Shown here: piece after piece, positions 21,255-43,982 of the stretch
How the letters are laid out: every line of letters starts with the position of its first letter
How positions within the stretch are numbered: position 1 is the first letter of the stretch
Assembly (NCBI GenBank): GCA_022797145.1
Contig: JAAWKA010000006.1
Coordinates: 14,306 to 78,305, forward strand
Length of the DNA stretch: 64,000 nucleotides
Direction: 5' to 3'
From: Clostridia bacterium
GTDB taxonomy: Bacteria; Bacillota; Clostridia; TANB77; CAG-508
Program-made: the position numbers and the translations under genes
Notes under the pieces: generated by a model
Databases searched by the model: none
Seen by the model: the letters and a program-made list of their open reading frames with translations, nothing else
Told to the model about the DNA's origin: nothing

Positions 21255-22151
21255 ATGAAAATAAATAGATTGTTTGAAATAGTATATTTATTATTAGAAA
21301 GAAAAACATTAACTGCAAAGGAACTATCAGAATATTTTGGAGTATCCATTAGAACTATATATAGAGATATTGATATATTAAGTACAGCTAATATTCCAAT
21401 TTATACTAGTAAAGGAAAAAATGGAGGAATCAGTTTATTAGATAGTTATGTATTTGATAAATCAATATTATTAGAAGAAGAACAAAATGAAATTTTATTT
21501 GCATTACAGAGTTTAGAAAAATTAGGTATAGATAATGAAAAAAAAATTTTACAGAAAATGAATATACTATTTAATAAGGTAGTTAAGAATTGGATAGAAA
21601 TAGATTTTTCACACATGGAGACAGATGAAGGAGAAAATAAAAAATTTCATGATATAAAACAAGCAATATTAAATAAAAAAGTAATTGAATTTATATATTT
21701 TAATTCTTTAGGGGAAAAAACTAAAAGACAAGTGGAACCATTGCAAATTTGCTTTAAAGATAAAGCATGGTATGTAAAGGCATATTGTAAGTTAAGAGAA
21801 GATTATAGAGTTTTTAAAATTACAAGAATAAAAGATGCAAAAGTATTAAATGAAACTTTTGAAAGAGAAAACTTAACAAAATACAAAGAACAAACAAGTA
21901 ATTTAAAAATTGTATCATTAGAGGTGAAAATAGCAAAAGAAAAAGCATATAGGGTATATGATGAGTTTGAAATAGAGAATATAAAAACAAATGATGATGG
22001 AGATTTTATAGTGAAATTTAGTTGTCCTGATAATGATTGGATATATGAATATATTTTATCTTTTGGAGAATATATAAAAGTTATATCACCAAATTATGTG
22101 AAGGAAGTTATAAAAGAAAAAATTCAAAAAATGGTAAAAAATTATTTATAA
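21255..22151 (+). CDS. HTH plus WYL-domain transcriptional regulator (YafY family)
   Basis: N-terminal wHTH (LTAKELSEYFGVSIRTIYRDIDIL) and a WYL core (VEPLQICFKDKAWYVKAYCKLREDYRVFKITRI). Confidence 0.8.
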   Translation: MKINRLFEIVYLLLERKTLTAKELSEYFGVSIRTIYRDIDILSTANIPIYTSKGKNGGISLLDSYVFDKSILLEEEQNEILFALQSLEKLGIDNEKKILQKMNILFNKVVKNWIEIDFSHMETDEGENKKFHDIKQAILNKKVIEFIYFNSLGEKTKRQVEPLQICFKDKAWYVKAYCKLREDYRVFKITRIKDAKVLNETFERENLTKYKEQTSNLKIVSLEVKIAKEKAYRVYDEFEIENIKTNDDGDFIVKFSCPDNDWIYEYILSFGEYIKVISPNYVKEVIKEKIQKMVKNYL

Positions 22152-22208
22152 TGTGACATACAGCTGTCATATTTGATATTATATAATCCTTGCTAGGAGG
22201 TAATAATT

Positions 22209-22682
22209 ATGAAATTTGAAATTGTAGAATTAGAAGAAAAACTAGTTGAAGGATTGCAAATAAGAACGACAGAGGAATATGGAGAAGCTACACAACAAAT
22301 AGTAAATGTGTGGCAAAAATTTTTAGGTGAAGGAATATATGATAAAATTGAAAATAAGAAAAATAGCAAAACAATTGGATTATATACAGATTATGAAGGT
22401 GACTACACGAAACCATATAATTTTATTGCTTGTACAGAAGTGAATAAAAAATCTGAAAATATTGAAGACAGAGTAGTAAAAGTTATACCAAAAGGGAAGT
22501 ATGCTAAATTTGTAATTTTTGCAGTTGATGGAGACATATCAAAATCTTTAGAAGAAGCTTGGGAAAAAATTTGGAGCATGAATTTAAACATAAAATATAC
22601 TTGCAATTTTGAGGAATATCAAGATAACTCAGAAGATACTCAAAACGAGGAAATTCATCTTTATGTTGAAATAGAAGGTTAA
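22209..22682 (+). CDS. GyrI-like small-molecule-binding domain protein
   Basis: 157 aa with MKFEIVELEEKLVEGLQIRT... and a C-terminal ..FEEY......IHLYVEI, the typical AraC-effector/GyrI-like fold signature. Confidence 0.65.
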   Translation: MKFEIVELEEKLVEGLQIRTTEEYGEATQQIVNVWQKFLGEGIYDKIENKKNSKTIGLYTDYEGDYTKPYNFIACTEVNKKSENIEDRVVKVIPKGKYAKFVIFAVDGDISKSLEEAWEKIWSMNLNIKYTCNFEEYQDNSEDTQNEEIHLYVEIEG

Positions 22683-22688
22683 AATATT

Positions 22689-23327
22689 ATGCCATTTGAT
22701 TATAAGAAAGAATACAAGGAATTTTATATGCCAAAAAATAAACCTAGTATTGTTGAAGTGCCTAAAATTAATTATATAGCGGTTAGAGGAAGGGGAAATC
22801 CAAATGAAGAAAATAGTGAATATAAAGATTCAATAGGACTTTTGTATGGAATTGCTTTTACGATAAAAATGAGTTATAAGGGAACACATAAAATAGAGGG
22901 CTATTTTGAATATGTTGTACCACCATTAGAGGGTTTTTGGTGGCAAGATGGAAATAAATTAGGAATAGATTATAAAAGTAAGGATAAGCTTAAGTTTATT
23001 TCTGTAATTCGATTACCAGATTTTGTATCAAAAGAAGATTTTGACTGGGCTACCAAAGAAGCGACTAAAAAGAAAAAACAGGATTTTTCAAAGGTTGAAT
23101 TTTTAACTTATGATGAAGGGATTTGTGTTCAATGTATGCATATTGGTAGTTATGATAAGGAAGCAACAACAGTTAATTTAATGCACAAATTTGCAAAAGA
23201 AAATGGATACGAACTAGATATAACAGATACAAGATTACATCATGAGATATATTTAAGCGATCCAAGAAAATGTGATGTAAGTAAATTAAAGACTCTTATA
23301 AGGCACCCAATTAAGAAAAGAAAATAA
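22689..23327 (+). CDS. GyrI-like domain protein (second paralogous type)
   Basis: The N-terminus FDYKKEYKEFYMPKNKPSIVEVPKINYIAVRGRGNPN and ..HHEIYLSDPRK are typical of the larger GyrI-like family. Confidence 0.6.
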   Translation: MPFDYKKEYKEFYMPKNKPSIVEVPKINYIAVRGRGNPNEENSEYKDSIGLLYGIAFTIKMSYKGTHKIEGYFEYVVPPLEGFWWQDGNKLGIDYKSKDKLKFISVIRLPDFVSKEDFDWATKEATKKKKQDFSKVEFLTYDEGICVQCMHIGSYDKEATTVNLMHKFAKENGYELDITDTRLHHEIYLSDPRKCDVSKLKTLIRHPIKKRK

Positions 23328-23334
23328 TTACTAA

Positions 23335-23380
23335 ATTGTAGACATACTATTAAATGTAAATTTAATAGTATGCCTACAAT
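23335..23380. terminator. Long bidirectional hairpin between converging genes
   Basis: About 20-bp stem ATTGTAGACATACTATTAAA / TTTAATAGTATGCCTACAAT with one mismatch. Confidence 0.65.
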
Positions 23381-23400
23381 TTATAAATATATATATAAAT

Positions 23401-25296
23401 TTATAAATAATTATTTCTTATATAGTCTTTAAATAATTCAATATCTTCAAATACTCTATATTTTTGTAAATTAACTTTACTAATATTACTGTTTTCTTCA
23501 TCTATCATAATTGCAACTGGTTCACTTAAATTATTTTGTATTCCATCAGGCCATGCCAGATCAATAATAATACTTTCATTATCATTTATTTTCAATTCAT
23601 AATTAATTTCTCCACTTGAAAGCCCATTTTCATCCATCCAATATGATAATTCCAATATTTTTTCATCTTCATTTATATCATTTGATACCCCTTTTCTGTT
23701 AGCATAATCAGTAATTTCCACTTTATCAACCTTGTTGTCCAAAAGACTATTTAAGAAATTATTTGCACAATCAGCTAATAATTTTCTTCTTTCAGCTAAA
23801 AATGCTTCATAATTTTCTACTTTAAATAATTCTTTATCATTTGTTGGAATCCAATGAGACTCTATTGCTCCTGGTTGTTTTTCAATATAAATTGGAATAT
23901 ATTTTTCTGGTTTTTCATCAGATATATCTTCATTTGTTTTTCTAGTAATAAATGTATAATTTGCTAAAGAATTTACTACAGATTTAGTTCTACCATTTTT
24001 ATATAGTAATGCTTTAGGGAATATATGATGAATTTCTAATGAAGAATTTTTTCCTAATAAGCAATTCTTTAACTCAATACCACTTGAAAAATCTTTTGAC
24101 TTATTCATTCGTGTTAATAAATATAATAAAGGATAAAATCTAGCACCAGTTCCCCATCCCAAGAAATCCTCTGGTTTTATCGTTAAATCTGACCTATCTT
24201 GTCTTAATTGATTTATCAGTCCATCTATTCCTTCACCATTATTTACTACATTTAAATCTCTTGCAAGAACACTTTCTGTTGAGCCTGCATATCTTCCCCA
24301 TAGAAATGTATGAATATACCAATATAATAATTTGTTCCATTCTGCATCATTTAGTTCTCTATTGTCTTTATTTAAATAGCCTATCATTAATGGAATAGCA
24401 AATTTACTACTTAGTACTCTTGTATTATCTAATCCAAGTCTTGAACCAATTTGGTTTAAAATTTCATCTATTCTATTTTCCACATATTTAAGACTTTTCT
24501 TAAATTCTTCTATATCTACTTGTTCTAATTCAGAGAAATAGGATTTACTTGTTAAATAAACTGTTATACACCTTAGCAACCATTCTAGTTTAAATTCATA
24601 ACCAGCTTCTTTTAATCTATTTAATATACCTCTTAGTTTTTGCCTTGCTTCTGGCCACAATGCACATATTTTTGCTAATGCTAAATCACCTTTACTTAAT
24701 TTAGTACCACCACTATTTAAATTGTTAAAAATTTCAACTACAACATCTAAAGTCTTGTCTTCTCCAACAACTTCCTCTATTTGCAAATCTTTTTGTGTTA
24801 AATTTAAATAAAGTCTATTTAGTTTTTCTATATAATCCATATAAAATTCTTTTTTATCTGATTGTACAATATAGTTTGCAGCTCCTAATTTTAACACTTG
24901 TGTTACATCTACCCAATAATCATCATCTTTCATCTTAATTGGAGCATAAAACTCGAATATTTCTGTATTCAAGTTAAAATATAAATTTTTAAATGCTTTA
25001 TCATCACCTTCAAAAAATGATGGAGCGTCTCCTTTAATTAATCCATATAGTGTTGTTAACCTTTGTTGTCCATCCAATATTAATTTTACAGATTTGTTTG
25101 CCTGATCAATATTTCCTCTTGTATATGATTCATCAGCTTCTGTTGTCCAAATTAGTAATCCACCTATTGGGTATCCCTTATATAAAGAATTTGCTAGCTT
25201 TTTGACTTGTTCTCTATTCCATACATACCCCCTTTGAAAATCTGGTAATGCATATTGTTTTGCATCAATTTGTGCTAGAATATCAATAATTTTCAT
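23401..25296 (-). CDS. GmrSD-type DUF262-DUF1524 nuclease (type IV restriction-like) with an extra C-terminal domain
   Basis: DUF262 motifs DFQRGYVW and LDGQQRLTT. DUF1524 His-Me finger LEIHHIFPKA..NSLANYTFITRKTNEDIS. About 120 further residues are uncharacterised. Confidence 0.8.
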   Translation of the reverse strand: MKIIDILAQIDAKQYALPDFQRGYVWNREQVKKLANSLYKGYPIGGLLIWTTEADESYTRGNIDQANKSVKLILDGQQRLTTLYGLIKGDAPSFFEGDDKAFKNLYFNLNTEIFEFYAPIKMKDDDYWVDVTQVLKLGAANYIVQSDKKEFYMDYIEKLNRLYLNLTQKDLQIEEVVGEDKTLDVVVEIFNNLNSGGTKLSKGDLALAKICALWPEARQKLRGILNRLKEAGYEFKLEWLLRCITVYLTSKSYFSELEQVDIEEFKKSLKYVENRIDEILNQIGSRLGLDNTRVLSSKFAIPLMIGYLNKDNRELNDAEWNKLLYWYIHTFLWGRYAGSTESVLARDLNVVNNGEGIDGLINQLRQDRSDLTIKPEDFLGWGTGARFYPLLYLLTRMNKSKDFSSGIELKNCLLGKNSSLEIHHIFPKALLYKNGRTKSVVNSLANYTFITRKTNEDISDEKPEKYIPIYIEKQPGAIESHWIPTNDKELFKVENYEAFLAERRKLLADCANNFLNSLLDNKVDKVEITDYANRKGVSNDINEDEKILELSYWMDENGLSSGEINYELKINDNESIIIDLAWPDGIQNNLSEPVAIMIDEENSNISKVNLQKYRVFEDIELFKDYIRNNYL

Positions 25297-25567
25297 ATTA
25301 AACTCCTTTACTATTTATTATAATATTTTTTAAAGTTTCCAGATTTCTATATCATCATATTTGCTTTTCTATTTCTGATGATTTATTAAGTAGTTTTATC
25401 AATTCAACTATTTTTTTGTTCTTCTATATCAATTTACAAATATATTAATTCATTTAAAATTCTGCATTAGCTATAAGTTTCATGAATATTTAAGTATTAG
25501 ATAGTTTATCTATGTTCATCTTTTGCTCTTTTCACTATCCATTCGTCATATTCTCCCACTTAACTAT

Positions 25568-27442
25568 TTATTCTCCTTCTAATATTTGTGTCAATTCTGC
25601 TAAATACTTTTGCTTAATATATTTTATTAAATTTGCATCTTCGGAAATCATAACTAAAACTCTTCTTGAATATTCTTGTATTATTTCTTCTAGCAAATAA
25701 TCTATTTTATGATCTGTATCTATATTTATATGTAACTTAGCATATTCATTGTTATCTAATATTTCTTCTATTTCTTTTTTTCTTAAATTATATAAATTAT
25801 CTAATTCTTCTTCATTTAATAGTTCTTTAATCCTATTTTTAAAATTTTCAATATTTCTATCTACACCTATTTTTTCTTTTAATTCTGAAATAAATTTTGA
25901 TGTTATATATTTAACTATTTGTCCCTCTTTTTGATGCTTTAATCTTTCGAAAATTTTACTTTTAGTTTTTTCTAGTGCTTCATCTGTAGCACAAAATCTA
26001 ATTTTAGCTTGTTTTATTATTTCTTCATCTAACAAAATATTTTCTATTTCTAAAATATTTAAAACAAGTATTTTATCTTCCTTTAATTTTTTAATATTCT
26101 CTTCTGTTCTAAAATCAAAATCAATAATTCCATATGCTCTATTTTGAGTACCAAATGTTTTATTATACATCCTAGTGTTTTCTATTACTTCATTATGACC
26201 AGCAGAAGATATAATATTAGCATTTTTAAATAAAATACTATATAATTTTTTGTCTAGACTTCGATCTGTTCCTTCACAGTACAAAATTGTTTTTTCTAAA
26301 AATGCATTTATTCTACTTCCTGTCAAATATCTTATTTGAGATAATCTATCATCATCAAAAATTTCAATATTATTATTATCGTTTCTTTTCAACATAATAA
26401 TATTTTCTTGTTCTGCAATGTCTATAAAAGTAGGTGAATGTGTTGCTAATACAATTTGTCTTCCATTAGTAGCATATTCTTTTAATTCATTATATAGACC
26501 TTCTTTTCTTGATTCATTTATAAAAGCATCTGGTTCATCAAATAATATTAATGAATTTTCATCTCCTAAAAACTCAAGTATGACTTTAAATAAAATCATC
26601 TTTTTTTGTCCTTCACTTAAATAAGAAGCTTCAAATGAATTATTTAGATATATTAATATATCTGTTATATTTGATTGTTTTAATATGTTAAAAATTTCAT
26701 TTTCATAATAAGATAAGCTATTTGATAAAATAATTTTACTAACATCTCCAGCAAGATATAATTTATTATCTTTTAAATTATATTGGTTCTTAATATTAAA
26801 AAAATTATTAATATCTTGTATTTTTCCACGAATCCATCTATATTCTTCTTCAGGATTATTTTGTGTTACAATTTCCTTTATAACTTCATTTTGATTGTTT
26901 TTAAAATTTTTAACAGTATATAGAAAAATTATATTATTTACTGTATCAATATTAATTTCATTTTTTAGGAAATTTTTAATGTTTTCTAACTGGCTATATA
27001 CTAATGTAAATAATGCATTTTTCCACATTCTTTTATCTACATAAATTAATCTATCATGTTTATGTTTCTCATTTGAATAATAATATTTCCTATATAATCT
27101 TTCATCTTCGCCACTATACATAGTAATGATATTAGTAGGCAATAGATTATCTCTTTCCAATAAATATCTTGATATAACTTTTCCATTTTTCTTTACAAGC
27201 CTTCTTTTTTTATTTATTATTGTAATTATATTATCATTTAAACTATAGGTTAATTCATATTCTATTTTTGAAATTTTGTTATTATATAAACAGTTAAAAA
27301 TTTCACTCAAACATTCTATTATATTGCTTTTTCCAGTACCGTTATTTCCTACAAAAATGCTTAATCCATTACTTTTTTCAAAATCTATTGTTAAATTTGT
27401 TAAATTTTTATAATTATTAATCCATAACTTTAAAAGTTTCAT
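25568..27442 (-). CDS. Fused ABC-type ATPase (AAA_15/21-like) and DUF4435/TOPRIM-like domain protein (PARIS AriA-AriB / RloA-RloB / OLD-like)
   Basis: Walker A GNNGTGKS, ABC signature LSEGQKK, Walker B LILFDEPD, and H-loop ATHSP. These are followed by ILYCEGTDRSLD and YGIIDFDF (EG..D / DxD TOPRIM-like motifs) and a helical tail. GGAG RBS lies in the 11-nt gap after hsdS. Confidence 0.75.
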   Translation of the reverse strand: MKLLKLWINNYKNLTNLTIDFEKSNGLSIFVGNNGTGKSNIIECLSEIFNCLYNNKISKIEYELTYSLNDNIITIINKKRRLVKKNGKVISRYLLERDNLLPTNIITMYSGEDERLYRKYYYSNEKHKHDRLIYVDKRMWKNALFTLVYSQLENIKNFLKNEINIDTVNNIIFLYTVKNFKNNQNEVIKEIVTQNNPEEEYRWIRGKIQDINNFFNIKNQYNLKDNKLYLAGDVSKIILSNSLSYYENEIFNILKQSNITDILIYLNNSFEASYLSEGQKKMILFKVILEFLGDENSLILFDEPDAFINESRKEGLYNELKEYATNGRQIVLATHSPTFIDIAEQENIIMLKRNDNNNIEIFDDDRLSQIRYLTGSRINAFLEKTILYCEGTDRSLDKKLYSILFKNANIISSAGHNEVIENTRMYNKTFGTQNRAYGIIDFDFRTEENIKKLKEDKILVLNILEIENILLDEEIIKQAKIRFCATDEALEKTKSKIFERLKHQKEGQIVKYITSKFISELKEKIGVDRNIENFKNRIKELLNEEELDNLYNLRKKEIEEILDNNEYAKLHINIDTDHKIDYLLEEIIQEYSRRVLVMISEDANLIKYIKQKYLAELTQILEGE

Positions 27443-27453
27443 ATCTTACTCCA

Positions 27454-28830
27454 TCATTTAAAAATCTTTGTACTTATATATATTTCAATTTGATGATTTA
27501 TTAGTTCAGAGTGTATTTTTAATTTATTAATTTTTTCTCGAATTTCAAAAATATAATTAACAATTTGTTGCTGGACTTCAATTTCTGGTAAGGGTATCAT
27601 TATTTTTTTTACATTTTCTATCCCTAATTCTGTTTGTTTTGTTGCTTCAGCTCCTTTTAATACTTCAATCTGATTTTGTACAATGTTACTATTAAATAAA
27701 TATGTATAGTATTCTGGATTTATATATTTAGTATTTACTCTTAATAATAATATATGACTATCGTACATTAGGTTTGTATTTTCATCATTAACTATACAAC
27801 TGGCTCTTCCTATAGTTCCTTCCCCTGTCGAATTAATTAAAATATCATTTTTTTGAGTAAAAATTTCTTTATTAATTGATAAAAGCCAATTTGTATTTAC
27901 ATTCTTAGCATAAGATAAATCTATATAATTTAATCTATTGCATTTTTGATTTAAAATTATAGATTCTGAATTTTCATCATATTTTGGGCTTTTTCCTCTG
28001 GCTAAAATTTGATAATATTTTGAATTTAATGAAATAATATTAAATTTATTACTTTCTATATTAGAAGCCTTTAAAATTTTGTTTACTCCCCATTGTGTTA
28101 TATTCATGAAATTAATAAATTCTAATATTTTATATTTTTTATTTGAAATGTTATTATTTTTTTTAATATTAATTTCTAGTTTTTCATATAAGTATTTATC
28201 TATACTATCTTCTAACATTTTTATCGTAGCTTCATTATCTTTTATAGTATTGCTCATTATTTTAAATTCTTTAACAATCTGATTTTGAATTTCTAACTTT
28301 GGTACTGGAATTTTGGTATTTAAAAATAACTCTTCTTGTAAATATAATCTATTTCCGCTACCATTACTGCATACTTCCCATTTTTCCACAAACCATTTAG
28401 AGGTTAGTATTAATACTAAATATTCTAAATTAACTTTGTCTAAATCAGCATCAAAAACCCAAAAATTTCCTGTAATGACAGCTTTGTCTAGTTCTTCATT
28501 TACGATTCCTATAGCTCCATTTCTTGCATCTATTTTAGATAATATTAATTGACCTGTTTTTATCTGAAATTGATCTTTGGTATTAATATATTTTCCATAT
28601 ATATTATCCCTTAATAATACTCCTCCATTATTAGTTTTTATTGTAACTCTCTTATACCTTTGGTCATTTGCAATTTTAATTTTATCTTTAATCCTTTTAA
28701 TACATTCTCTAATTGGTATCATATTAAATTTTGTATTTATATAGTTATCATATGAGAACTTTTTAATATTCCAATTAACTAAATCATTAAATTTTATAAA
28801 TTTTAATATATTATAATTTTCTTTTACCAT
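27454..28830 (-). CDS. hsdS: Restriction-modification specificity subunit (HsdS-like, two target-recognition domains)
   Basis: Two TRD repeats, each ending in the conserved-region helix (..IPVPKLEIQNQIVKEF.. and ..IPLPEIEVQQQIVNYIFEIREKINKL). The start overlaps the methyltransferase stop (ATGGTAA). Confidence 0.85.
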   Translation of the reverse strand: MVKENYNILKFIKFNDLVNWNIKKFSYDNYINTKFNMIPIRECIKRIKDKIKIANDQRYKRVTIKTNNGGVLLRDNIYGKYINTKDQFQIKTGQLILSKIDARNGAIGIVNEELDKAVITGNFWVFDADLDKVNLEYLVLILTSKWFVEKWEVCSNGSGNRLYLQEELFLNTKIPVPKLEIQNQIVKEFKIMSNTIKDNEATIKMLEDSIDKYLYEKLEINIKKNNNISNKKYKILEFINFMNITQWGVNKILKASNIESNKFNIISLNSKYYQILARGKSPKYDENSESIILNQKCNRLNYIDLSYAKNVNTNWLLSINKEIFTQKNDILINSTGEGTIGRASCIVNDENTNLMYDSHILLLRVNTKYINPEYYTYLFNSNIVQNQIEVLKGAEATKQTELGIENVKKIMIPLPEIEVQQQIVNYIFEIREKINKLKIHSELINHQIEIYISTKIFK

Positions 28831-31085
28831 ATCATTATTTCCTTTTCTCCATTTATTGTCCTTTGTATAAAATCATTTTCTAATATATCATATTCTATAA
28901 CATTCTTTTTTGGGTTCCACAATTTATTTTCTGACACATAGTCTTTAAATTCTTTTTCTAAAGTTAATAATTCTAAATTTTCAGTTTTCATACCAGTACT
29001 TGTTATACCTGCATCATTTATTTTTGCAATTGGTATTTCATAATCAAAGTATTTCTTTATCAATGGTTTTGCTTCATCAATAACTATATTATCTAGTTCT
29101 GCTAATAATTTCAATATTTTCCTTTTTTCAGATGTTTTTTTGTCATTACATTCCTTCAATTGATTGTTAAGGTTAAAATATTTATCTTTATATTTTTCTC
29201 TCACTTCACATATTGCCTTTTTGACAGCTTTACTATAATCGTTTTCCTCTTCTTCAGTAAATTTTTTCATAAATATTAAACTGGGTTTAACAGTTGCACC
29301 AGCTGCAATAAACACATCTTGAGGAATAGAACAAATTAATAATATTTTTGCTTTTCCTTCAAAATAATCTCTTACTTTTTGTAGATTACTTGTATTTAAT
29401 ACTCCTTCTGGAAGAACCATTCCCATTCTTCCGCCTTTTTTTAGTAATCTTAAACATCTTTCCATAAATAATACTTCTGTTAAAGTTGAAACAGAGCCTA
29501 AATCATATAAATCTAACAATCTAGTATTTATATTATCATCAATTTGTTTTAAAGAGTTTATGTATGCTTCTCCATACTTAGCAATATATTCTTGTTTTGC
29601 TTCCTCATCTTTAAACTTATCATCTTCTGTTATTTTTTGGGTTTTGCCAATTCTTGAACCAAATGGAGGATTTGTAAGTATTACGTCAAACTTATTTTCA
29701 AATATTCCCCCAATATTTAATAAACCATCATGATGATGTACTCCTCCATGACCATCACCATGCATTATCATATTCATTTTAGATGTCCTTGCCATTCTTG
29801 GATTTGCATCTGTACCATATATACAATTATATGAAAGGTGGTGTAGTCTACTTTTTTTAAAATCGCTTACTAATTCTGTATTTAATAATAATTGCATTTT
29901 ATCTATTTTCTCATTTATAAGTATCTTTTCATTTTCTTTTAAATTTTCATAATTTTTTCCTTCAATAATTTTCCTTAGTTTTTCCTTCGATTCTTTAACA
30001 TCTTTTTCTATTTTTTCTCTAATGTATTCAAATGCTTTTATTAAAAAACCTCCACTACCACAAGTAGGATCGCAAATAAATTCACCTTCTTGGGGATCTA
30101 AAATATGTGTCATAAAATTTACTATGGTTCTAGGAGTAAAAAATTGCCCAAGTTCACCTCTGAATGTTTTTCCTAAAAATTCTTCAAAAGCGATACCTTT
30201 AACGTCATCTGATGTATCTGACAAATTATATTTTTGAAGTTTCTCTAATATAGCTTCAAAACTATTTTCTCGAATTTTAATTACTTCATTTGATTCAAAT
30301 AACTTATTAGTTCTATAAAAATGTTTTGCATCTTCAAATAAGGTTTGCATATATTCTTTTTTATCTGCATTATAATTTATTTTTTGATACTCTTCATAAA
30401 CCTTTTTATTTTCTTTATATTTCTTTAAAGTAAAGATTTCTTTACCCTTTACTTCTTTTTCATGTCTTATTTTAATAAACAATATTTTACTTATTTCATC
30501 AAATGCAGCTTCTGGTGATAACTTATCATTATTCCTAATTATATTATGGCATGTAAATAAAAGCCTAGCAAATTCATCTCTTGTAAAAGTTTTAGTTTCT
30601 GATAAAATTTCTTTTATACGTTTACTATCATTAACCTCATCAGCTTTGGGGATCGATAATATTTCTTCTAAGGCCATAGGTATTTCGCCTTTTACTACAT
30701 TAAAATACTTTGTTTCTTTTTGATTTGTTGTAACAAAAAATTTTGCTCCTGCCCATGAGGCATAATTATATCCTTGAAAATAATCTTCTTCATGCAATTT
30801 TACATTTTCTGCTTTACATTCTACAACGATAAATGCACTTTTATTTTCTCTTTTTTCTATTTTACTTTTCCATATAACAATATCTGCTCTAGCTTGTCCA
30901 TTCCCTCTTCTAGAATTATTTACTTGAACTTCTTGATCCATTTGTTCTTTTTCATATCCTAGTTCGTTAATTAAATGTAAAATAAACTCTTGCCTAACTA
31001 TTTCTTCAGGGGTTTCTATTAACCATGTATCTTTTAGAGGGGCATATATTTTTCCATCTTTTTTTTGTATATATATTTTTTCCAT
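28824..31085 (-). CDS. hsdM: N6-adenine DNA methyltransferase (HsdM-like, gamma class) fused to an N-terminal HSDR_N/PD-(D/E)xK nuclease-like domain (BcgI-A-like architecture)
   Basis: N-terminal ~130 aa carry D68 (RADIVIW) and E89-x-K91 (FIVVECKAE). SAM motif I is FICDPTCGSGGFL and catalytic motif IV is LTNPPFGS. 753 aa. RBS GGAGG. Confidence 0.8.
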   Translation of the reverse strand: MEKIYIQKKDGKIYAPLKDTWLIETPEEIVRQEFILHLINELGYEKEQMDQEVQVNNSRRGNGQARADIVIWKSKIEKRENKSAFIVVECKAENVKLHEEDYFQGYNYASWAGAKFFVTTNQKETKYFNVVKGEIPMALEEILSIPKADEVNDSKRIKEILSETKTFTRDEFARLLFTCHNIIRNNDKLSPEAAFDEISKILFIKIRHEKEVKGKEIFTLKKYKENKKVYEEYQKINYNADKKEYMQTLFEDAKHFYRTNKLFESNEVIKIRENSFEAILEKLQKYNLSDTSDDVKGIAFEEFLGKTFRGELGQFFTPRTIVNFMTHILDPQEGEFICDPTCGSGGFLIKAFEYIREKIEKDVKESKEKLRKIIEGKNYENLKENEKILINEKIDKMQLLLNTELVSDFKKSRLHHLSYNCIYGTDANPRMARTSKMNMIMHGDGHGGVHHHDGLLNIGGIFENKFDVILTNPPFGSRIGKTQKITEDDKFKDEEAKQEYIAKYGEAYINSLKQIDDNINTRLLDLYDLGSVSTLTEVLFMERCLRLLKKGGRMGMVLPEGVLNTSNLQKVRDYFEGKAKILLICSIPQDVFIAAGATVKPSLIFMKKFTEEEENDYSKAVKKAICEVREKYKDKYFNLNNQLKECNDKKTSEKRKILKLLAELDNIVIDEAKPLIKKYFDYEIPIAKINDAGITSTGMKTENLELLTLEKEFKDYVSENKLWNPKKNVIEYDILENDFIQRTINGEKEIMIW

Positions 31086-31413
31086 TATGAACCTCCATAG
31101 CCACTTTTTTGTTGATTATATCACACATCTCTTTTATGTCCAACTTTATGTATGAAAAAACAAAATTTTTCTACAATATTTTACTTTATAGCCTGTATAG
31201 CAAGAATAGATGCCAGATATTTTTCTTTGCTGATTTTTAATTATTATCATTCTTATATTTTTTAAAATTCTTGAAACATTAATATATGGAAATTCGCCCC
31301 TCCAGTATATGGAAAATTGCACACTAGACAACAGGAAGCTCAAATCATAGCTAAAATGTATGAGATTATTTATTATAAAGTTGAAAACCTTAGAAGAAAA
31401 TCATAACATACAT

Positions 31414-31452
31414 AAAAAATACCTACTAACTTCGTTTTATAGTAGGTATTTT
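31414..31452. terminator. Hairpin terminator downstream of the 31463-31876 gene
   Basis: About 12-bp stem AAAATACCTACT / AGTAGGTATTTT flanked by A/T runs. Confidence 0.6.
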
Positions 31453-31462
31453 CATTTTATAT

Positions 31463-32279: not shown

Positions 32280-32355
32280 TGGTTGCGGGGGGTAGACTCG
32301 AACTACCGACCTTTGGGTTATGAGCCCAACGAGCTGCCAACTGCTCCACCCCGCG
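32280..32355 (-). tRNA. Initiator tRNA-fMet (anticodon CAT)
   Basis: The reverse complement CGCGGGGTGGAGCAGTTGGCAGCTCGTTGGGCTCATAACCCAAAGGTCGGTAGTTCGAGTCTACCCCCCGCAACCA folds as a cloverleaf. It has a C1xA72 mismatch and three G-C pairs closing the anticodon stem, both initiator hallmarks. Confidence 0.9.
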
Positions 32356-38552: not shown

Positions 38553-40500
38553 ATGAATTATAAAGTACAAGGTATAATTAGAAGAAATAAAAAATATTTA
38601 GTATTATTTTTAGTACTATGGTTTGTTTTAACTGTAGTACTTGTTATGCCGTTAGCATATAGTATAAAGAATTCTATAGTAAATGAAAAATTTATTATAA
38701 ATAAATTTTTTGAAAATATTTATCAATCGGTGATAAACTTAGGCTCAGTTATAGGAAGTACATTTACACCCAAATACATTGGAACATTTTTTAATGTATT
38801 GTGGAAATTTAGCTTAGTTTATACAATTTGTATGTTAATAGGACTAATAAAAACTGCACCAAAAAATGAATATACAGATATAGAACATGGATCAAGTGAC
38901 TGGTCAAAAAATGGAGAACAATATAGAATCTTAAGTAATAAAAAAGGAATAATATTAGCAAAAGAGAATTATTTACCAGTAGATAAAAGAGGAAATGTCA
39001 ATGTACTAGTAGTAGGACGGTTCAGGTTCAGGTAAATCAGCATCATACTCAATACCAAATGCATATCAAATGTTAGGTTCATACATATTTACAGATCCAA
39101 AAGGTGAACTATATGATAAAACAGCAGGATATCTAAAACAACATGGATATGAAATAAAAGTATTAAATTTAGTACGTCCACAATATAGTGATGGATACAA
39201 TCCGCTAATGCATATATCAAGTGAACTAGATGTAGACGTTATAGCAAATACAATAGTAAAAGGACAAAAAACATCAGACAGTAGTGATCCATATTGGGAT
39301 GATATGGCAGAAATGCTATTAAAATCATTAATTTATTATCTAATTGCAACAAGACCAGAAGAGGAACAAAATTTAGCAAGTTGTGCTGAACTAGTAAGAG
39401 CAGCCAATAATAAGGGTGGAAGTAATTTGCTTACAGAGCTAATGAATCAATTACCATATGATCACCCAGCTAGAATGAACTATAAATCAATAGAAATAGC
39501 ACCAGAGAAAACTTATGGTTCAATACTATCATCATTACAATCAAAACTTGGAAAATTTGATTCAAGAGAAATAGCAGAACTAACATCAACAGATACAATA
39601 AATTTTGAAGAGATAGGAAACAAAAAAACAGCAGTATATGTAATATCATCAGATACACATACAGCATATGACTTTTTATTAACTATATTCTTTTCTCAAA
39701 TGATACAACAACTATATGACTTTGCAGATAAAAAAGGTGGAGCACTACCAATGCCAACATACTTTATATTAGACGAATTTGCAAACATAGGAAAGATACC
39801 AGATTTTGACAAAAAAATATCTACAAGTAGAAGTAGAAAAATATCATTTAGTGTAATTTTACAAAATTTAGACCAATTAGAAGCAGTATATGAAAAATCA
39901 TATGAAACAATAATAGGAAACTGTGATACACATGTATTTTTAGGAAGTAATTCACAAAAAACAGTAGAATATTTTTCAAAAGCATTAGGAGAAAAAACTA
40001 TAGAAAGAGAGAGTATCTCCTTAAATAAAGATAAACATAACTGGAATCAAGGAAAAAGTGTATCAGACCAAATAATGGCAAGAGCTCTAATGACACCAGA
40101 TGAATTAAGAAGAATGGACAATGATTTATGTATCATATTTGAAAAAGGAATAAAACCAATACAAGCAGAAAAATTCTATTATTTTCAAACTTCAATGGCA
40201 AAAAGGTTAGCAGCAGTAAGTATCAACCATAATGATATAGGAGATATAGAAAGAGGAATATGGAGAAAATACAATCCATATAATCCATATGTGGAAGAAA
40301 ATAAAGAAAAACAAATAGAAGATTTAAAAGTGGAATCTTTAGATGATCTATTTGAAGAAGAAACACAAGAAATGCAAGAAGCACCAATATTACCACAAGA
40401 AGAAAATAAAGTAGAAGAAGAACTACAAATAGATATACAAGAAGAATTAGAAGCAAAATTTGATGAACTATTTGGACCAATAGAAGATAACCAAACATAA
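38553..40500 (+). CDS. VirD4/TraG-family type IV coupling protein, frame interrupted by one extra C (39018)
   Basis: ORF 38553-39035 encodes two N-terminal TM helices and ends ..NVLVVG-CGG-TTC..TAA. Skipping the C gives VVGGSGSGKSASYSIPNAYQMLGSYIFTDPKGELYD, continuous with ORF 39070-40500. Motifs present: Walker A, DPKGE, Walker B YFILDEFANIG, and an acidic tail. The span is 1948 nt, i.e. 649 codons plus 1 nt. Confidence 0.85.
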
Positions 40501-40970: not shown

Positions 40971-42038
40971 ATGAAATTTATACATATGGCAGATATGCAC
41001 TTTGATATTCCATTTACAACATTAAGTAAAAAAGGTTTGGGAGATAAAAGAAGACTAGAACAAAGAGAAGCATTTAAAAAAATAATAGAATATATACAAA
41101 ATAATAAAATAGAATACTTATTTATATGTGGAGACTTTTATGAACATGAATATGTAAAACAAAGTACAATAGAATATATAAATAACAAATTCAAAGAAAT
41201 ACCAAATACAAAAATATATATAGTACCAGGAAACCATGATCCAATAATAAAAAATTCATATTATAACACATTTAATTGGAATAATAATGTACACATATTT
41301 AAAGCAGAAATAGAAAAAGCATCAAATCAAAATATACATATATATGGATATGGATTTGATAACTTTTATATGAAAAATACAAAAGTTAATGAAATAAAAA
41401 TAGAAAATAAAAATGATATAAACATTTTATTAACACATGCAAGTTTAGATGCAATATCAGATGAAGAAAAACAATATAATCCAATAATAGCAAAACAATT
41501 AAATGAAAAAGGATTTGATTATGTTGGATTAGGACATATACACAAACCATTATATAAAAAAGAAGAAAATGAAAAAATAATATATCCTGGCTCAACAATA
41601 TCATTAGGATTTGATGAAAAAGAAAACCATGGAATAATATATGGTGAAATAAATGAAAAAAAAGAAATAAAAATAGAATTTATAAAAATAGACGAAACAG
41701 AATTTAAAGAAAAAGAAATAAAAATAGATGAAATAATATCAAAAGAAGAATTAATAGAAAAAATAAATAATTTAAATATAGAAGATAATAATCTATATAA
41801 AATAATATTAATAGGAAAAAGAAATTTTGAAATAAATGTACAAGAAATAATGAAACAAATAAAAATAAATAATATTATAAAAATAAAAGATAATACCCAA
41901 ATAAAAACAGATTTACAAAAATTATCAAAAGAAAATAATTTAAAAGGATTATTTATAAAAAATATGCTATCAAAAATAAATAATGAAAACAAAGAACAAA
42001 TATTAAAAGCAATAGAAATAGCTTTAGAATGTATGTAG
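40971..42038 (+). CDS. Mre11/SbcD-like metallophosphoesterase (YhaO-like)
   Basis: Calcineurin-like motifs MADMHFD, GDFYEH, GNHD and GHIH. Confidence 0.75.
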   Translation: MKFIHMADMHFDIPFTTLSKKGLGDKRRLEQREAFKKIIEYIQNNKIEYLFICGDFYEHEYVKQSTIEYINNKFKEIPNTKIYIVPGNHDPIIKNSYYNTFNWNNNVHIFKAEIEKASNQNIHIYGYGFDNFYMKNTKVNEIKIENKNDINILLTHASLDAISDEEKQYNPIIAKQLNEKGFDYVGLGHIHKPLYKKEENEKIIYPGSTISLGFDEKENHGIIYGEINEKKEIKIEFIKIDETEFKEKEIKIDEIISKEELIEKINNLNIEDNNLYKIILIGKRNFEINVQEIMKQIKINNIIKIKDNTQIKTDLQKLSKENNLKGLFIKNMLSKINNENKEQILKAIEIALECM

Positions 42039-42104
42039 ATATATTTAATAAATAATATATATAAAAATTTATAAAATAAAAACTCAATATAGGAGAAAAT
42101 AAAA

Positions 42105-43982
42105 ATGAATATATTAAAAATGCATATAAATAATTTCGGAAAATTAGAAAATAAAAAAATAAACTTAGAAAAAGGAATTAATATTATTTATGGTAAAAAT
42201 GAAAGTGGTAAATCAACACTATTAAAATTTATAATAGGAATATTCTTTGGGCTTTCTAAAAATAAAAATGGGAAAATTATTTCTGATTATGATAAATATA
42301 CTCCTTGGTCAAATAAAGAATTTTCAGGAAAATTAGAATATGAATTAGATAATAAAAATAAATATGAAATATTTAGAGAATTTAATAAAAAAAATCCTCA
42401 AATATATGATGAGAATTTAGAAGAAATATCAAAAAAATTTAATATAGATAAAACAAATGGTAATCAATTTTTTTATGAACAAACTAATGTAGATGAAAAT
42501 TTATTTAAATCTACAATTGTTTCTGAACAACAAGAAATAAAATTAGAAGAAAAAGAACAAAACCAATTAATTCAAAAAATGACTAATATAATATCTACTG
42601 GAGAAGATAATATATCATTTCAAAAAATAATAAACAAATTAAATAAAAAACAATTAGAAGAAATAGGAACAAAAAGAAGTCAAGATAGACCAATAAATAT
42701 TTTAAGTAATAGATTAGAAGAAATAGAAAATAAAAAAGAATATTTAAAACAATTTATTGACAAAAAAAATGAAATAGAACAAAAAAACAAATACATACAA
42801 AATATAATAGAATCAAAAGAAATAGAATTAGAAATAATAAAAAAACAAAAAAATATAATAGAGAATGAAGAATTACAAAAAGAAAAAATAAAAATAAAAA
42901 AAGAAAATGTAGAAGAATATAATGAAAAAATAAATAATTTAAAAAATAAAAAAGAAATATTAGAAAAAGATAATGAAATAAAAAAAGAAACATTAAAAAT
43001 ACAAATTATATTAGAAATTATATATATCATAATTACAATTATAATGCTTAGTATAAAAAATAATTTAATAGCAACAATAGGAATGATAATTACAATTTTA
43101 AATTTAATATATATTTTATATAAAAAAAGTAAAAGTAAAAAAAATAATAAACAAAAATATAATAATAAAAAAATACAAATTAATAATATAGAAAATGAGA
43201 TTAAAATATTAGAAGAGAGTAAAAATAAAAAAATAGAACAAATAAAAATAGAACAAAACAAAATAAAATATGAAAAATATTTACAAGAAAATAACACAAA
43301 AGAATATTATAAAAAAATATTGCCGTTAAATTTTATAGAAGAAATATTAAACAAAAAAGAATTAAATCTTGAAATAGAGAAATTGCAAAATGAAATAAAT
43401 AATGAAAAAATAAGTTTTAATACTAATAATATAGAAAAAAATAACATAATAAAAAAATTAGAAGAATTAGTAAAGATAGAAGAAGAATATTATTTTTTGC
43501 AAGAACAATATAAAGAATTAAAATTTAACAATGAGGCAATAGAAATTGCAAGACAAGAACTTGAGAACACATATGAAGAGATGAAAAAAAATATTACTCC
43601 TGAATTTACCTATAATTTATCAAAAATAATAAGTAAAATATCTAATGGGAAATATAATAAAATAAAATTTGATGATAAAAATGGTATAACAGTAGAACTT
43701 CAAAATGGTAATTATATATCAGCAGAAAAGCTAAGCATAGGAACAATAGATCAACTTTATTTATCATTAAGATTAGCTGCTGCAAATCAAATATCAAAAG
43801 AAAATTTACCAATAATATTAGATGAAGTATTTGCTTTTTATGATAAAGAAAGATTAGAAAATATATTAAAATATATAAATGAAGAATTTGAAAATAGACA
43901 AATTTTAATATTTACTTGTACAAATAGAGAATCAGAATTATTAGAAAAAAATAATATAACATTTAATTATATTACAATATAA
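42105..43982 (+). CDS. SbcC/Rad50-like AAA ATPase with a coiled coil and an internal TM hairpin (YhaN-like)
   Basis: Walker A GKNESGKST, a long Lys/Glu coiled coil interrupted by two hydrophobic helices (IQIILEIIYIIITIIML..ATIGMIITILNLIYILY), a signature-like LSIGTIDQLYLSLRLA, and Walker B IILDEVFAFYD. Confidence 0.7.
   Translation: MNILKMHINNFGKLENKKINLEKGINIIYGKNESGKSTLLKFIIGIFFGLSKNKNGKIISDYDKYTPWSNKEFSGKLEYELDNKNKYEIFREFNKKNPQIYDENLEEISKKFNIDKTNGNQFFYEQTNVDENLFKSTIVSEQQEIKLEEKEQNQLIQKMTNIISTGEDNISFQKIINKLNKKQLEEIGTKRSQDRPINILSNRLEEIENKKEYLKQFIDKKNEIEQKNKYIQNIIESKEIELEIIKKQKNIIENEELQKEKIKIKKENVEEYNEKINNLKNKKEILEKDNEIKKETLKIQIILEIIYIIITIIMLSIKNNLIATIGMIITILNLIYILYKKSKSKKNNKQKYNNKKIQINNIENEIKILEESKNKKIEQIKIEQNKIKYEKYLQENNTKEYYKKILPLNFIEEILNKKELNLEIEKLQNEINNEKISFNTNNIEKNNIIKKLEELVKIEEEYYFLQEQYKELKFNNEAIEIARQELENTYEEMKKNITPEFTYNLSKIISKISNGKYNKIKFDDKNGITVELQNGNYISAEKLSIGTIDQLYLSLRLAAANQISKENLPIILDEVFAFYDKERLENILKYINEEFENRQILIFTCTNRESELLEKNNITFNYITI

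Follow-up and report, generated by a model that had tools for sequence, protein, structure and literature searches.

A conserved operon of a nuclease-methyltransferase, a specificity subunit and an OLD-type ATPase-TOPRIM protein: a possible layered defence unit in a Clostridia bacterium

Background

We analysed a stretch of 64,000 nucleotides (nt) from a Clostridia bacterium (contig JAAWKA010000006.1). The whole stretch is called the window, and all positions given below are window coordinates. We focused on an operon of its minus strand coding for a DNA methyltransferase with an N-terminal nuclease domain (M), a specificity subunit (S), an ABC ATPase with a C-terminal TOPRIM nuclease domain (A) and a GmrSD protein. 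Judging from sequence comparisons, M and S would be a self-sufficient type IIB-like restriction-modification (RM) system and A a dedicated, swappable effector resembling PrrC and PARIS, a reading to which we give a probability of roughly one half. We found no named system with exactly the M-S-A module, the closest ones being MADS, fused PARIS, RloAB and PARIS embedded in BREX. The described systems compare with the operon as follows.

i) PARIS in its merged form, AriAB. As in A, an AAA_15/AAA_21 ATPase is fused to a DUF4435 TOPRIM domain, and the catalytic E and DxD are present; Ocr is the trigger of PARIS, which then cuts tRNA-Lys (PMC9122126, PMC11464382). However, canonical PARIS is autonomous, whereas A comes third in an M-S operon, the only context in which the lineage of its ATPase half is found. 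Furthermore, the N-terminal half of A fits a PtuA-type model better, which is its best PADLOC match (2e-41).

ii) PrrC of EcoprrI, and RloC. These also join an ABC-type NTPase and a C-terminal nuclease in one polypeptide whose gene lies beside hsdM-hsdS, and PrrC is released when the T4 protein Stp hits EcoprrI, the type I system in whose locus it is encoded (PMC12707154). By analogy, A may be a latent effector released on RM inhibition. Nevertheless, A has no sequence relationship to the anticodon-nuclease domain and its partner RM lacks HsdR. No PrrC-type family appeared among the Pfam, NCBIfam and PADLOC hits of the operon proteins.

iii) Type IIB enzymes such as BsaXI and BcgI. Here too an N-terminal PD-(D/E)xK domain is fused to a gamma N6-adenine methyltransferase, and a separate S has two target-recognition domains (TRDs); we found both features in M and S. 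BsaXI and BcgI are (RM)2S enzymes that need neither a separate R subunit nor ATP. However, the identity with BsaXI is only around 18%, BsaXI has no ATPase partner, and for our proteins the flanking cleavage is a prediction.

iv) MADS. This system has a related methyltransferase, including its N-terminal half (NCBIfam MAD2, E 1e-82), an S protein (mad5) and an ABC ATPase (mad3), and the PADLOC matches of our proteins were 5.9e-43 for mad2, 4e-22 for mad5 and 3.3e-17 for mad3. However, our operon has three or four genes and not eight (mad1-mad8), without the kinase or other mad genes, and its TOPRIM domain is fused and of the AriB type. Membership of MADS was rejected because the scores are far under the curated cut-offs of the NCBIfam equivalogs (278 bits versus 720 for MAD2, 42.7 versus 420 for MAD3), five of the eight genes are missing and GmrSD matches no mad model.

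v) OLD classes 1 to 4 and Septu (PtuAB). An ABC ATPase followed by a TOPRIM domain is again the common feature, and sister operons of ours have an OLD-like_TOPRIM or PtuA plus PtuB. The four OLD classes are a single gene (1), a pair with a UvrD-like helicase (2), a retron-linked form (3) and the split ariA/ariB (4), and P2 Old, retron-linked OLD and Septu effectors act in ways related to those of PARIS and PrrC (PMC10568477). However, M-S upstream together with GmrSD downstream fits none of the four classes, and an M-S-linked class is not listed.

vi) RloAB in Campylobacter type I loci and PARIS within BREX. As in our operon, an ABC ATPase together with a TOPRIM domain stands inside a methylation-based locus. 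For RloAB within type I loci a synergy has been proposed (PMC10802264); PARIS is found within BREX in StySA (PMC9009780) and in BREX at large (PMC12839542), which has been read as synergy or back-up, and the OLD-ABC modules of BREX loci have been read as back-up suicidal effectors (PMC12839542). However, those hosts own HsdR or PglZ/BrxL and their modules are two-gene and sporadic, whereas our lineage has a fused module as a rule.

Regarding GmrSD, type I RM elements and SMC_N/AAA_23 proteins were already reported in 2015 as enriched around its genes (PMC4619093). The M-S-A module was undescribed in the full text that we searched, and it may be drawn in Krishnan 2020 (ABC ATPases) or in Maestri 2024. 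Thus, every part of the operon is of a known kind; a widespread ATPase-nuclease module dedicated to M-S was not found described, and priority is uncertain.

Results and discussion

Gene order and junctions

The list of translated open reading frames (ORFs) contained four intact long ones, head to tail on the minus strand. Lengths of proteins are in amino acids (aa).

28824-31085, minus strand: M, 753 aa
27454-28830, minus strand: S, 458 aa, two TRDs
25568-27442, minus strand: A (ABC ATPase plus TOPRIM), 624 aa
25297-25567, minus strand: spacer between A and GmrSD, 271 nt, with AAAGGAG as a strong ribosome-binding site before GmrSD
23401-25296, minus strand: GmrSD, 631 aa

The junctions are as the original prediction had described them. 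M and S overlap within ATGGTAA at 28830-28824, where the ATG of S overlaps the last M codon, TGG, which is followed by TAA. The TGA of S at 27456-27454 is separated from the ATG of A at 27442 by 11 nt (TGGAGTAAGAT) that include GGAG, and GmrSD begins 271 nt beyond the stop of the ATPase gene. On the other hand, the claim that the three proteins are probably made in fixed stoichiometry goes too far, since translational coupling alone does not give it.

The proteins M, S and A

In the Pfam domain search M consists of HSDR_N_2 (aa 26-146, 90 bits) and N6_Mtase. The N-terminal PD-(D/E)xK motif reads ARAD68IV ... VVE89CK91 (D68, E89 and K91, called DEK below), the middle part is an HsdM-like helical region (CHNIIRNNDKLSPEAAFDEISKILF), and the motifs of a gamma-class N6-adenine methyltransferase are DPTCGSGGF and NPPF, the latter at aa 472-475. 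The PADLOC model MTase_I PDLC03018 is matched end to end with 1179 bits. S has Methylase_S twice and matches Specificity_I PDLC03148 over its full length (PADLOC, 1.1e-47).

The nuclease motif of M is highly conserved. D68, E89 and K91 are kept in 110 of 114 M homologues, and NPPF in all 114. We found the DEK motif in every locus without an ATPase (18/18), in every ATPase-positive locus collected from the M side (31/31) and in 61 of the 65 loci of the census made from the ATPase side.

The closest solved relative of the M family is the type IIB enzyme RM.BsaXI (profile E 2.8e-32); in an extra and weak stretch of the alignment, RVDVLV ... IEVKA of BsaXI stands against ARADIVIW ... VVECKA of M. 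The top three Foldseek matches of the AlphaFold2 (AF2) model of M were also BsaXI, the model itself being poor (predicted local distance difference test, pLDDT, 68) and weak in the methyltransferase core. A single-chain relative of 922 aa without an ATPase is encoded on the Acidithiobacillus caldus plasmid pTcM1.

As for type I systems, the operon shares with them the gamma N6-adenine methyltransferase and the two-TRD HsdS, and it has no HsdR subunit. Neither in the operon nor among the large ORFs of the window did we find an HsdR-like ORF, and none was seen in 73 related operons. A classical type I system with a distant hsdR was thus discarded for the window. We infer that M and S make up a self-sufficient RM enzyme of type IIB-like design.

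A has AAA_21/AAA_15 at aa 1-341 (51 and 45 bits) and DUF4435 at aa 384-593 (39 bits, cut-off 27), which is the combination in a single protein by which PARIS is detected. Its ATPase motifs are GNNGTGKS (Walker A), LSEGQKK (signature), LILFDEPD (Walker B) and ATHSP (H-loop), and the TOPRIM residues are E390-G391 and D441-x-D443; an ABC ATPase at the N-terminus and, at the C-terminus, a TOPRIM domain with catalytic acidic residues are what defines the OLD family. The original prediction had likened the protein to PARIS, and its place in the PARIS/OLD world is borne out by PADLOC: the fused AriAB model PDLC02982 matches A with 1.2e-34, and the C-terminal 250 residues alone match AriAB with 1.4e-29 and AriB with 2.6e-8. 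The AF2 model of A (pLDDT 82.5) has its best Foldseek matches in retron-Eco8 OLD, GajA, TsOLD (Thermus OLD) and PtuA.

In the alignment of 78 ATPase proteins, Walker A and B, the signature, the H-loop and E390-G391 are invariant, and D441 and D443 are kept in at least 90%. The C-terminal domains of the relatives carry different Pfam labels, namely OLD-like_TOPRIM (26), DUF3226 (13), Toprim_2 (7) and DUF4435 (5). By these comparisons, the A family is an OLD-type ATPase-TOPRIM lineage dedicated to this position of the operon, and the branch of the window has an AriB-like version of the TOPRIM domain. The catalytic motifs are intact in every enzyme of the unit.

The three-gene order from the ATPase side

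An alignment of ATPase homologues, without M, was the query for a scan of GTDB genomes, one for each species. It returned 80 loci, with Clostridia, Spirochaetes, Bacteroidota, Alpha- and Deltaproteobacteria, Campylobacterota, Ignavibacteria, Acidobacteria, Oligoflexales and Peregrinibacteria as source groups. We could evaluate 73 of them, which had at least 3.8 kb of upstream sequence; they hold the nearest relatives of the ATPase and come from at least 8 phyla. All 73 have an M homologue upstream on the same strand, 45-65% identical to the M of the window with the nuclease domain included, and in all 73 the order is M, an S-sized gene and the ATPase. S was recognised by tblastn with the S of the window in 67 loci; in the other 6 there is an ORF of 428-458 aa at the same position, as expected of hypervariable TRDs. 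In addition, an exact-protein look-up found the M-S-ATPase order in Flavonifractor-type gut contigs and in Treponema pectinovorum (three lineages).

Regarding the spacing, we used the 38 loci with exactly one gene between M and A. Between the S stop and the A start there are -14 to +36 nt; in 36 of the 38 loci the value does not exceed 9 nt, and the genes overlap in 23. A census of this linkage had been suggested in the original prediction, and with the 73 of 73 loci and these short distances its outcome was close to the strongest possible and supports a real, conserved functional unit of three genes. Because the order recurs across at least 8 phyla, the ATPase-nuclease is, to judge by gene order, a partner dedicated to the restriction system, and chance does not explain its place.

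Between loci, identity in M goes together with identity in A (Mantel r = 0.51, a value reached in 0 of 999 permutations), which speaks for co-inheritance. A diverges much faster, the median pairwise identity being 36% for A versus 58% for M. The ATPases of the relatives are 24-40% identical to A of the window, and the C-terminal domains can be aligned by BLAST in the closest relatives only.

An M-S-ATPase operon on plasmid p1 of Flammeovirga kamogawensis (L176) has RefSeq names that are generic: 'N-6 DNA methylase', 'restriction endonuclease subunit S' and 'ATP-binding protein'. There, a small HTH gene (6707-6988 of L176) ends 1 base before M of the M-S-ATPase operon and resembles the controller proteins of RM systems.

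The third gene seen from the M side

M has at least 8000 homologous proteins, many of them more than 60% identical and generically named 'N-6 DNA methylase'. We therefore also examined 80 metagenomic loci that were picked by M alone, 37 of which have at least 5 kb downstream. The third gene of these 37 loci was as follows.

Fused ATPase-nuclease: 15 of 37 loci
ATPase of 476-506 aa followed by an ORF of about 210 aa: 8 of 37 loci
Fragment only: 1 of 37 loci
No ATPase: 13 of 37 loci

After de-replication at 90% M identity there were 32 lineages, of which 21 have an ATPase, 9 do not and 2 are mixed. The linkage is thus one-sided: A is always with M-S, whereas M-S is often, though not in every case, with A.

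The split pair is Septu, with PtuA (PADLOC, 1.4e-77) and the HNH nuclease PtuB (4.5e-52); examples are L115 11599-13673, L124 4124-6291 and six more loci. The ATPase of these pairs belongs to the same PADLOC subfamily (PDLC00293) as A of the window.

In the loci without an ATPase the slot is taken by a DndB-like and nucleoside-deoxyribosyltransferase/TIR-like protein (L090, L100), by mobile-element genes (L096, L122) or by nothing. The L090 gene region (4518-7122) codes for a DndB-like protein of about 500 aa with a C-terminal nucleoside-2-deoxyribosyltransferase (NDT)/TIR-like domain and then for an OGG-like protein; L100 has a similar protein of about 500 aa (7787-9283) in a separate M lineage. 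We regard this DndB/TIR-like protein as a candidate alternative effector. M of L090 is at least 90% identical to M of L093 and L094, which carry the ATPase, and this means that the third gene was exchanged on a constant M-S chassis. The slot is swapped among chemically unrelated effectors (TOPRIM, HNH and TIR/NDT-like), which fits suicide effectors and not a core R subunit.

Transcription unit, GmrSD and other accessory genes

The four genes are flanked by two strong hairpin terminators, and one good predicted promoter lies ahead of them.

About 31415-31453, minus strand: upstream terminator, 14-bp stem then a U-run, ending the preceding gene
31115-31142, minus strand: predicted promoter, TGGACA, 16-nt spacer and TATAAT with a TG extended -10
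About 23332-23383, both strands: downstream terminator, a perfect 24-bp hairpin where the GmrSD and GyrI-like genes converge

The upstream terminator has a free energy (dG) of -19.4 kcal/mol (z -5.7) and the downstream one of -28.9 kcal/mol (z -9.8), and in both cases 0 of 200 shuffled sequences fold as well. The promoter is the best sigma-70-like match of the 9.4-kb region, with 11 of 12 positions of a consensus match, and lies around 30 nt ahead of the M start, with a GGAGG ribosome-binding site at 31096-31092. The terminator scan gave no terminator-like hairpin inside the operon, and the 271-nt spacer has no terminator-like fold (z -0.7 and -0.2 versus shuffled sequences). Since the first strong terminator comes after GmrSD, the transcript probably includes GmrSD as a fourth gene. 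The original prediction had found no terminator until after 25568; this is true, except that the unit most likely runs on through GmrSD to the hairpin at about 23332-23383. Likewise, its spacing for GmrSD as a third layer downstream was correct and the role understated, as GmrSD appears to be co-transcribed and, on other elements, a gene 93% identical to it in DNA sequence fills the third-gene slot.

GmrSD has a DUF262/ParB-like N domain (GmrSD_N, 112 bits, cut-off 33.2) and a His-Me finger C domain with the motif EIHHIFP (GmrSD_C, 22.2 bits, marginal to the cut-off of 23), and it matches HEC-05 with 3.5e-48. With its DUF262 and DUF1524 His-Me domains it belongs to the type IV (modification-dependent) nuclease family.

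The DNA of the window at 23399-25309 is 92.9% identical to 9988-11898 of L170 and L171, on gut-metagenome mobilizable elements that also carry a relaxase, DUF6076, TnpV and an integrase. The similarity is limited to the gene, from 13 nt before the ATG to the stop. On those elements GmrSD lies 1 base after a 794-aa HSDR_N_2-methyltransferase (26% identical to M) and a 472-aa S-like ORF, and because it directly follows the S-like ORF, GmrSD can itself be the third gene. By this comparison GmrSD acts as a gene-sized cassette exchanged between RM operons.

At 1-1034 of L171, L174 and L175 there is a gene for a 606-aa OLD-like ATPase-TOPRIM protein, just upstream of the mobile-element backbone with the M/S-like/GmrSD operon. 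These elements may carry two such operons, the upstream part of one being cut off.

Other accessory genes occupy two positions. Right after A (49 proteins) we found GmrSD 7 times including the window, GIY-YIG/DUF4357 7, RAMA 7, T5orf172 3, FokI-like 2, Mrr 2 and a second AAA_15 ATPase 2, so they are mostly nucleases or RM-associated domains. Between S and A, 1-3 genes are inserted in 20 of 65 loci (among them L011/L012, L014, L050, L073, L076, L077, L087 and L088); the inserts are TIR_2, Schlafen/AlbA_2, AbiC, NYN, RhuM, IS200 and a second AAA_15 ATPase, and several are ORFs of 181-246 aa without a family match. In relatives from Treponema, DUF262-family genes lie 9-20 nt after A (L009, L019, L020, L023), and in L011 and L012, also from Treponema, a GmrSD homologue lies directly before M.

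For the C-terminal domain of A a word-indexed search gave only the query fragment, and we used an exhaustive HMMER search. It gave 889 representative proteins, 284 of them at E of 1e-10 or less, and the best 150 matches are mostly fusions of 600-695 aa with the domain at the C-terminus. We looked up five fused proteins. P0279 follows an S gene and precedes Mrr, P0299 and P0315 follow partial S-like ORFs (blastp 2.6e-7 and 8e-14), P0349 is an AAA_21-DUF4435 fusion alone in a contig of 1.3 Mb, and the contig of P0290 is too short. As far as five look-ups, which are no census, can suggest, a fair share of the merged AriAB proteins may be linked to RM.

A proposed layered defence and the other explanations

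The layered defence would work as follows. M and S would form an (RM)2S-type enzyme built like BsaXI and BcgI, in which S would read a bipartite site, the methyltransferase of M would mark host DNA with N6-methyladenine and the PD-(D/E)xK domain of M would cut unmarked DNA, so that HsdR would be unneeded. A would be made together with this M2S complex and be tied to it functionally and probably physically. It would stay latent until something, for example a DNA-mimic anti-restriction protein, attacks or bypasses the RM complex, and then fire as a second-line, abortive-infection-type nuclease on tRNA or DNA. Finally, the co-transcribed GmrSD would remove phages that escape by cytosine hypermodification. 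We infer the type IIB-like cleavage, the physical coupling of A to M2S, the trigger and the TOPRIM substrate, and A is most likely a back-up suicide effector.

This guarding role of A gains weight from three observations. M contains a conserved PD-(D/E)xK motif of its own and is similar to BsaXI, and therefore no HsdR substitute is needed; M and S persist without the ATPase with all motifs intact; and the third gene changes between TOPRIM, HNH and TIR/NDT-like effectors. The layered defence also agrees with the linkage in 73 of 73 loci, the short distances between S and A, the correlated identities of M and A, the faster divergence of A, the single-chain relative on pTcM1 and the precedents of PARIS, PrrC, RloAB and PARIS within BREX.

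Several points weigh against it. The DEK motif is gone from four of the 65 M proteins linked to an ATPase, and in these loci A could supply the nuclease. Most MADS genes are reportedly needed for restriction or for self/non-self discrimination. Canonical PARIS works without RM and does not guard EcoKI (PMC9122126), and this autonomy means that the tight operon linkage is not predicted by the best-studied relative. AriA, with its coiled-coil insertions and propeller hexamer, ranks 48th in the fold search with the A model, behind OLD, GajA and PtuA, and the monomer model of A lacks a long coiled coil like that of AriA, which may be a further difference from PARIS. The exclusive tie of the ATPase lineage to one M family fits an integral enzyme subunit equally well. 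Furthermore, the interaction of A with M2S, its trigger and its substrate are predictions, and the type IIB-like DNA cleavage by M and S is deduced from architecture and motifs.

The explanation that survives best after the layered defence makes A the ATP-dependent restriction component of an RM-like enzyme with three subunits, in the role of HsdR and with an ABC/OLD-type engine. In such an enzyme M2S would find unmethylated sites and recruit or activate A, which would cut the DNA; the PD-(D/E)xK domain of M would be there for cutting the second strand or for docking. The linkage of the ATPase lineage to one M family in 73 of 73 loci and to no other RM type agrees with this, as do the overlap or very short spacing of S and A, which is near-universal, the co-inheritance of M and A, the invariant Walker and E-G residues with a nearly invariant DxD, and the loss of the DEK motif in the four M proteins. 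All three proteins match MADS components, a kinship that this model explains as well as the layered defence does, ATPases drive restriction in other methylation-based systems (bioRxiv 10.64898/2026.09.23.753747) and OLD nucleases cut DNA (PMC10568477). However, the nuclease motif of M is complete almost everywhere, also in the 18 loci without A, and M resembles the self-sufficient BsaXI. About a third of the M lineages lack A, and where M is 90% or more identical, a DndB/TIR-like protein or nothing can replace A. Different nucleases go with the ATPase (TOPRIM-OLD, DUF4435, HNH in trans) and 20 of 65 loci have unrelated genes separating S from A, both of which are unusual for an obligate subunit, and A diverges much faster than M. 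The main weakness is that the conserved nuclease of M, the lineages without ATPase and the TIR-like replacements are left unexplained. Therefore the idea of an HsdR replacement, which the original prediction had set beside the guarding role, comes out weakened, and we consider it a tentative alternative, on the doubtful side.

A broader form of the same idea is that M-S-(ABC ATPase/TOPRIM) is a distinct, widespread ATP-dependent RM class, in which an OLD-type engine replaces the SF2-helicase HsdR and of which the merged PARIS clades would largely be components. We think that this is unlikely.

That A is a free-standing single-gene PARIS/OLD-type system, sharing a mobile cassette and transcript with the RM genes because joint transfer and expression would pay off as in a defence island, without molecular cross-talk, is improbable: canonical PARIS does function without any RM (PMC9122126), the more distant fusion P0349 stands alone, the fourth and inserted slots hold unrelated defence genes as in a hotspot (GmrSD, GIY-YIG, RAMA, Mrr, TIR, AbiC) and related operons are on mobilizable elements, but a generic neighbour would vary in RM family and orientation, whereas A has the same position after the same M family in all 73 loci, mostly with overlapping stop and start, the identities of M and A are correlated, and of the 4 distant fused DUF4435 proteins that are informative, 3 likewise come after an S gene.

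Surroundings of the operon

The operon is surrounded by housekeeping genes of the plus strand, such as those for a PBP5-type carboxypeptidase, ComEA, a WYL regulator and GyrI-like proteins, and further on tRNA-Met, an HD protein, MurF and Ddl. The GC skew of the operon block is inverted with respect to these surroundings.

Convergent with GmrSD, at 21255-23327, there is a WYL/HTH/WCX regulator gene followed by two GyrI-like (Cass2) genes, and the bidirectional terminator is common to GmrSD and the GyrI-like genes. WYL regulators are often near defence islands; we have no evidence tying the one at 21255-23327 to the operon. Other features of the window, whose G+C content is around 25%, are a gene for the YpeB sporulation protein (16999-18393) and a small signal recognition particle (SRP) RNA gene (12146-12240). 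YpeB and the low G+C content together point to a spore-forming Firmicute.

Directly downstream of a TraG/VirD4-type coupling protein there is a stretch of 16-20% G+C (40971-43982 and 39070-40500), coding for a protein of 355 aa that weakly matches PDC-S10 and an AAA_23/AAA_27 ABC ATPase of 625 aa with weak mad3 and PbeC matches. This stretch could be a second region with defence or mobile-element cargo.

We also considered an island insertion at tRNA-Met with att repeats. The att-repeat search gave no tRNA-derived direct repeat within 20-33 kb, and as there is no matching direct repeat at the other end of the island, this was rejected. The 3' half of tRNA-Met (32280-32324), which is next to the operon, has a 45-nt match of 93% at L171 19460-19504, beside TnpV and integrase genes of the related mobile elements, and this suggests that tRNA-Met serves as an attachment site.

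Conclusions

PARIS, Septu and OLD have been studied as free-standing systems, whereas in this large lineage of many phyla an ATPase-nuclease of that kind is tied to a single conserved pair of a nuclease-methyltransferase and S. The lineage is thus a natural test of whether ABC-ATPase effectors guard restriction complexes, with a logic like that of PrrC in another protein family, or alternatively of whether they are restriction engines. If the operons were an ATP-dependent RM class of their own, the merged single-gene PARIS would largely not be autonomous anti-restriction sensors.

Regarding the annotation, tools would call these loci an incomplete type I RM plus PARIS or Septu, and RefSeq gives generic names; both miss that they are one unit. 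Furthermore, the M-S pair is an anchor for finding new effectors by way of its swappable third and fourth slots, which hold TOPRIM, HNH, TIR-like, GmrSD, GIY-YIG, RAMA and Mrr proteins.

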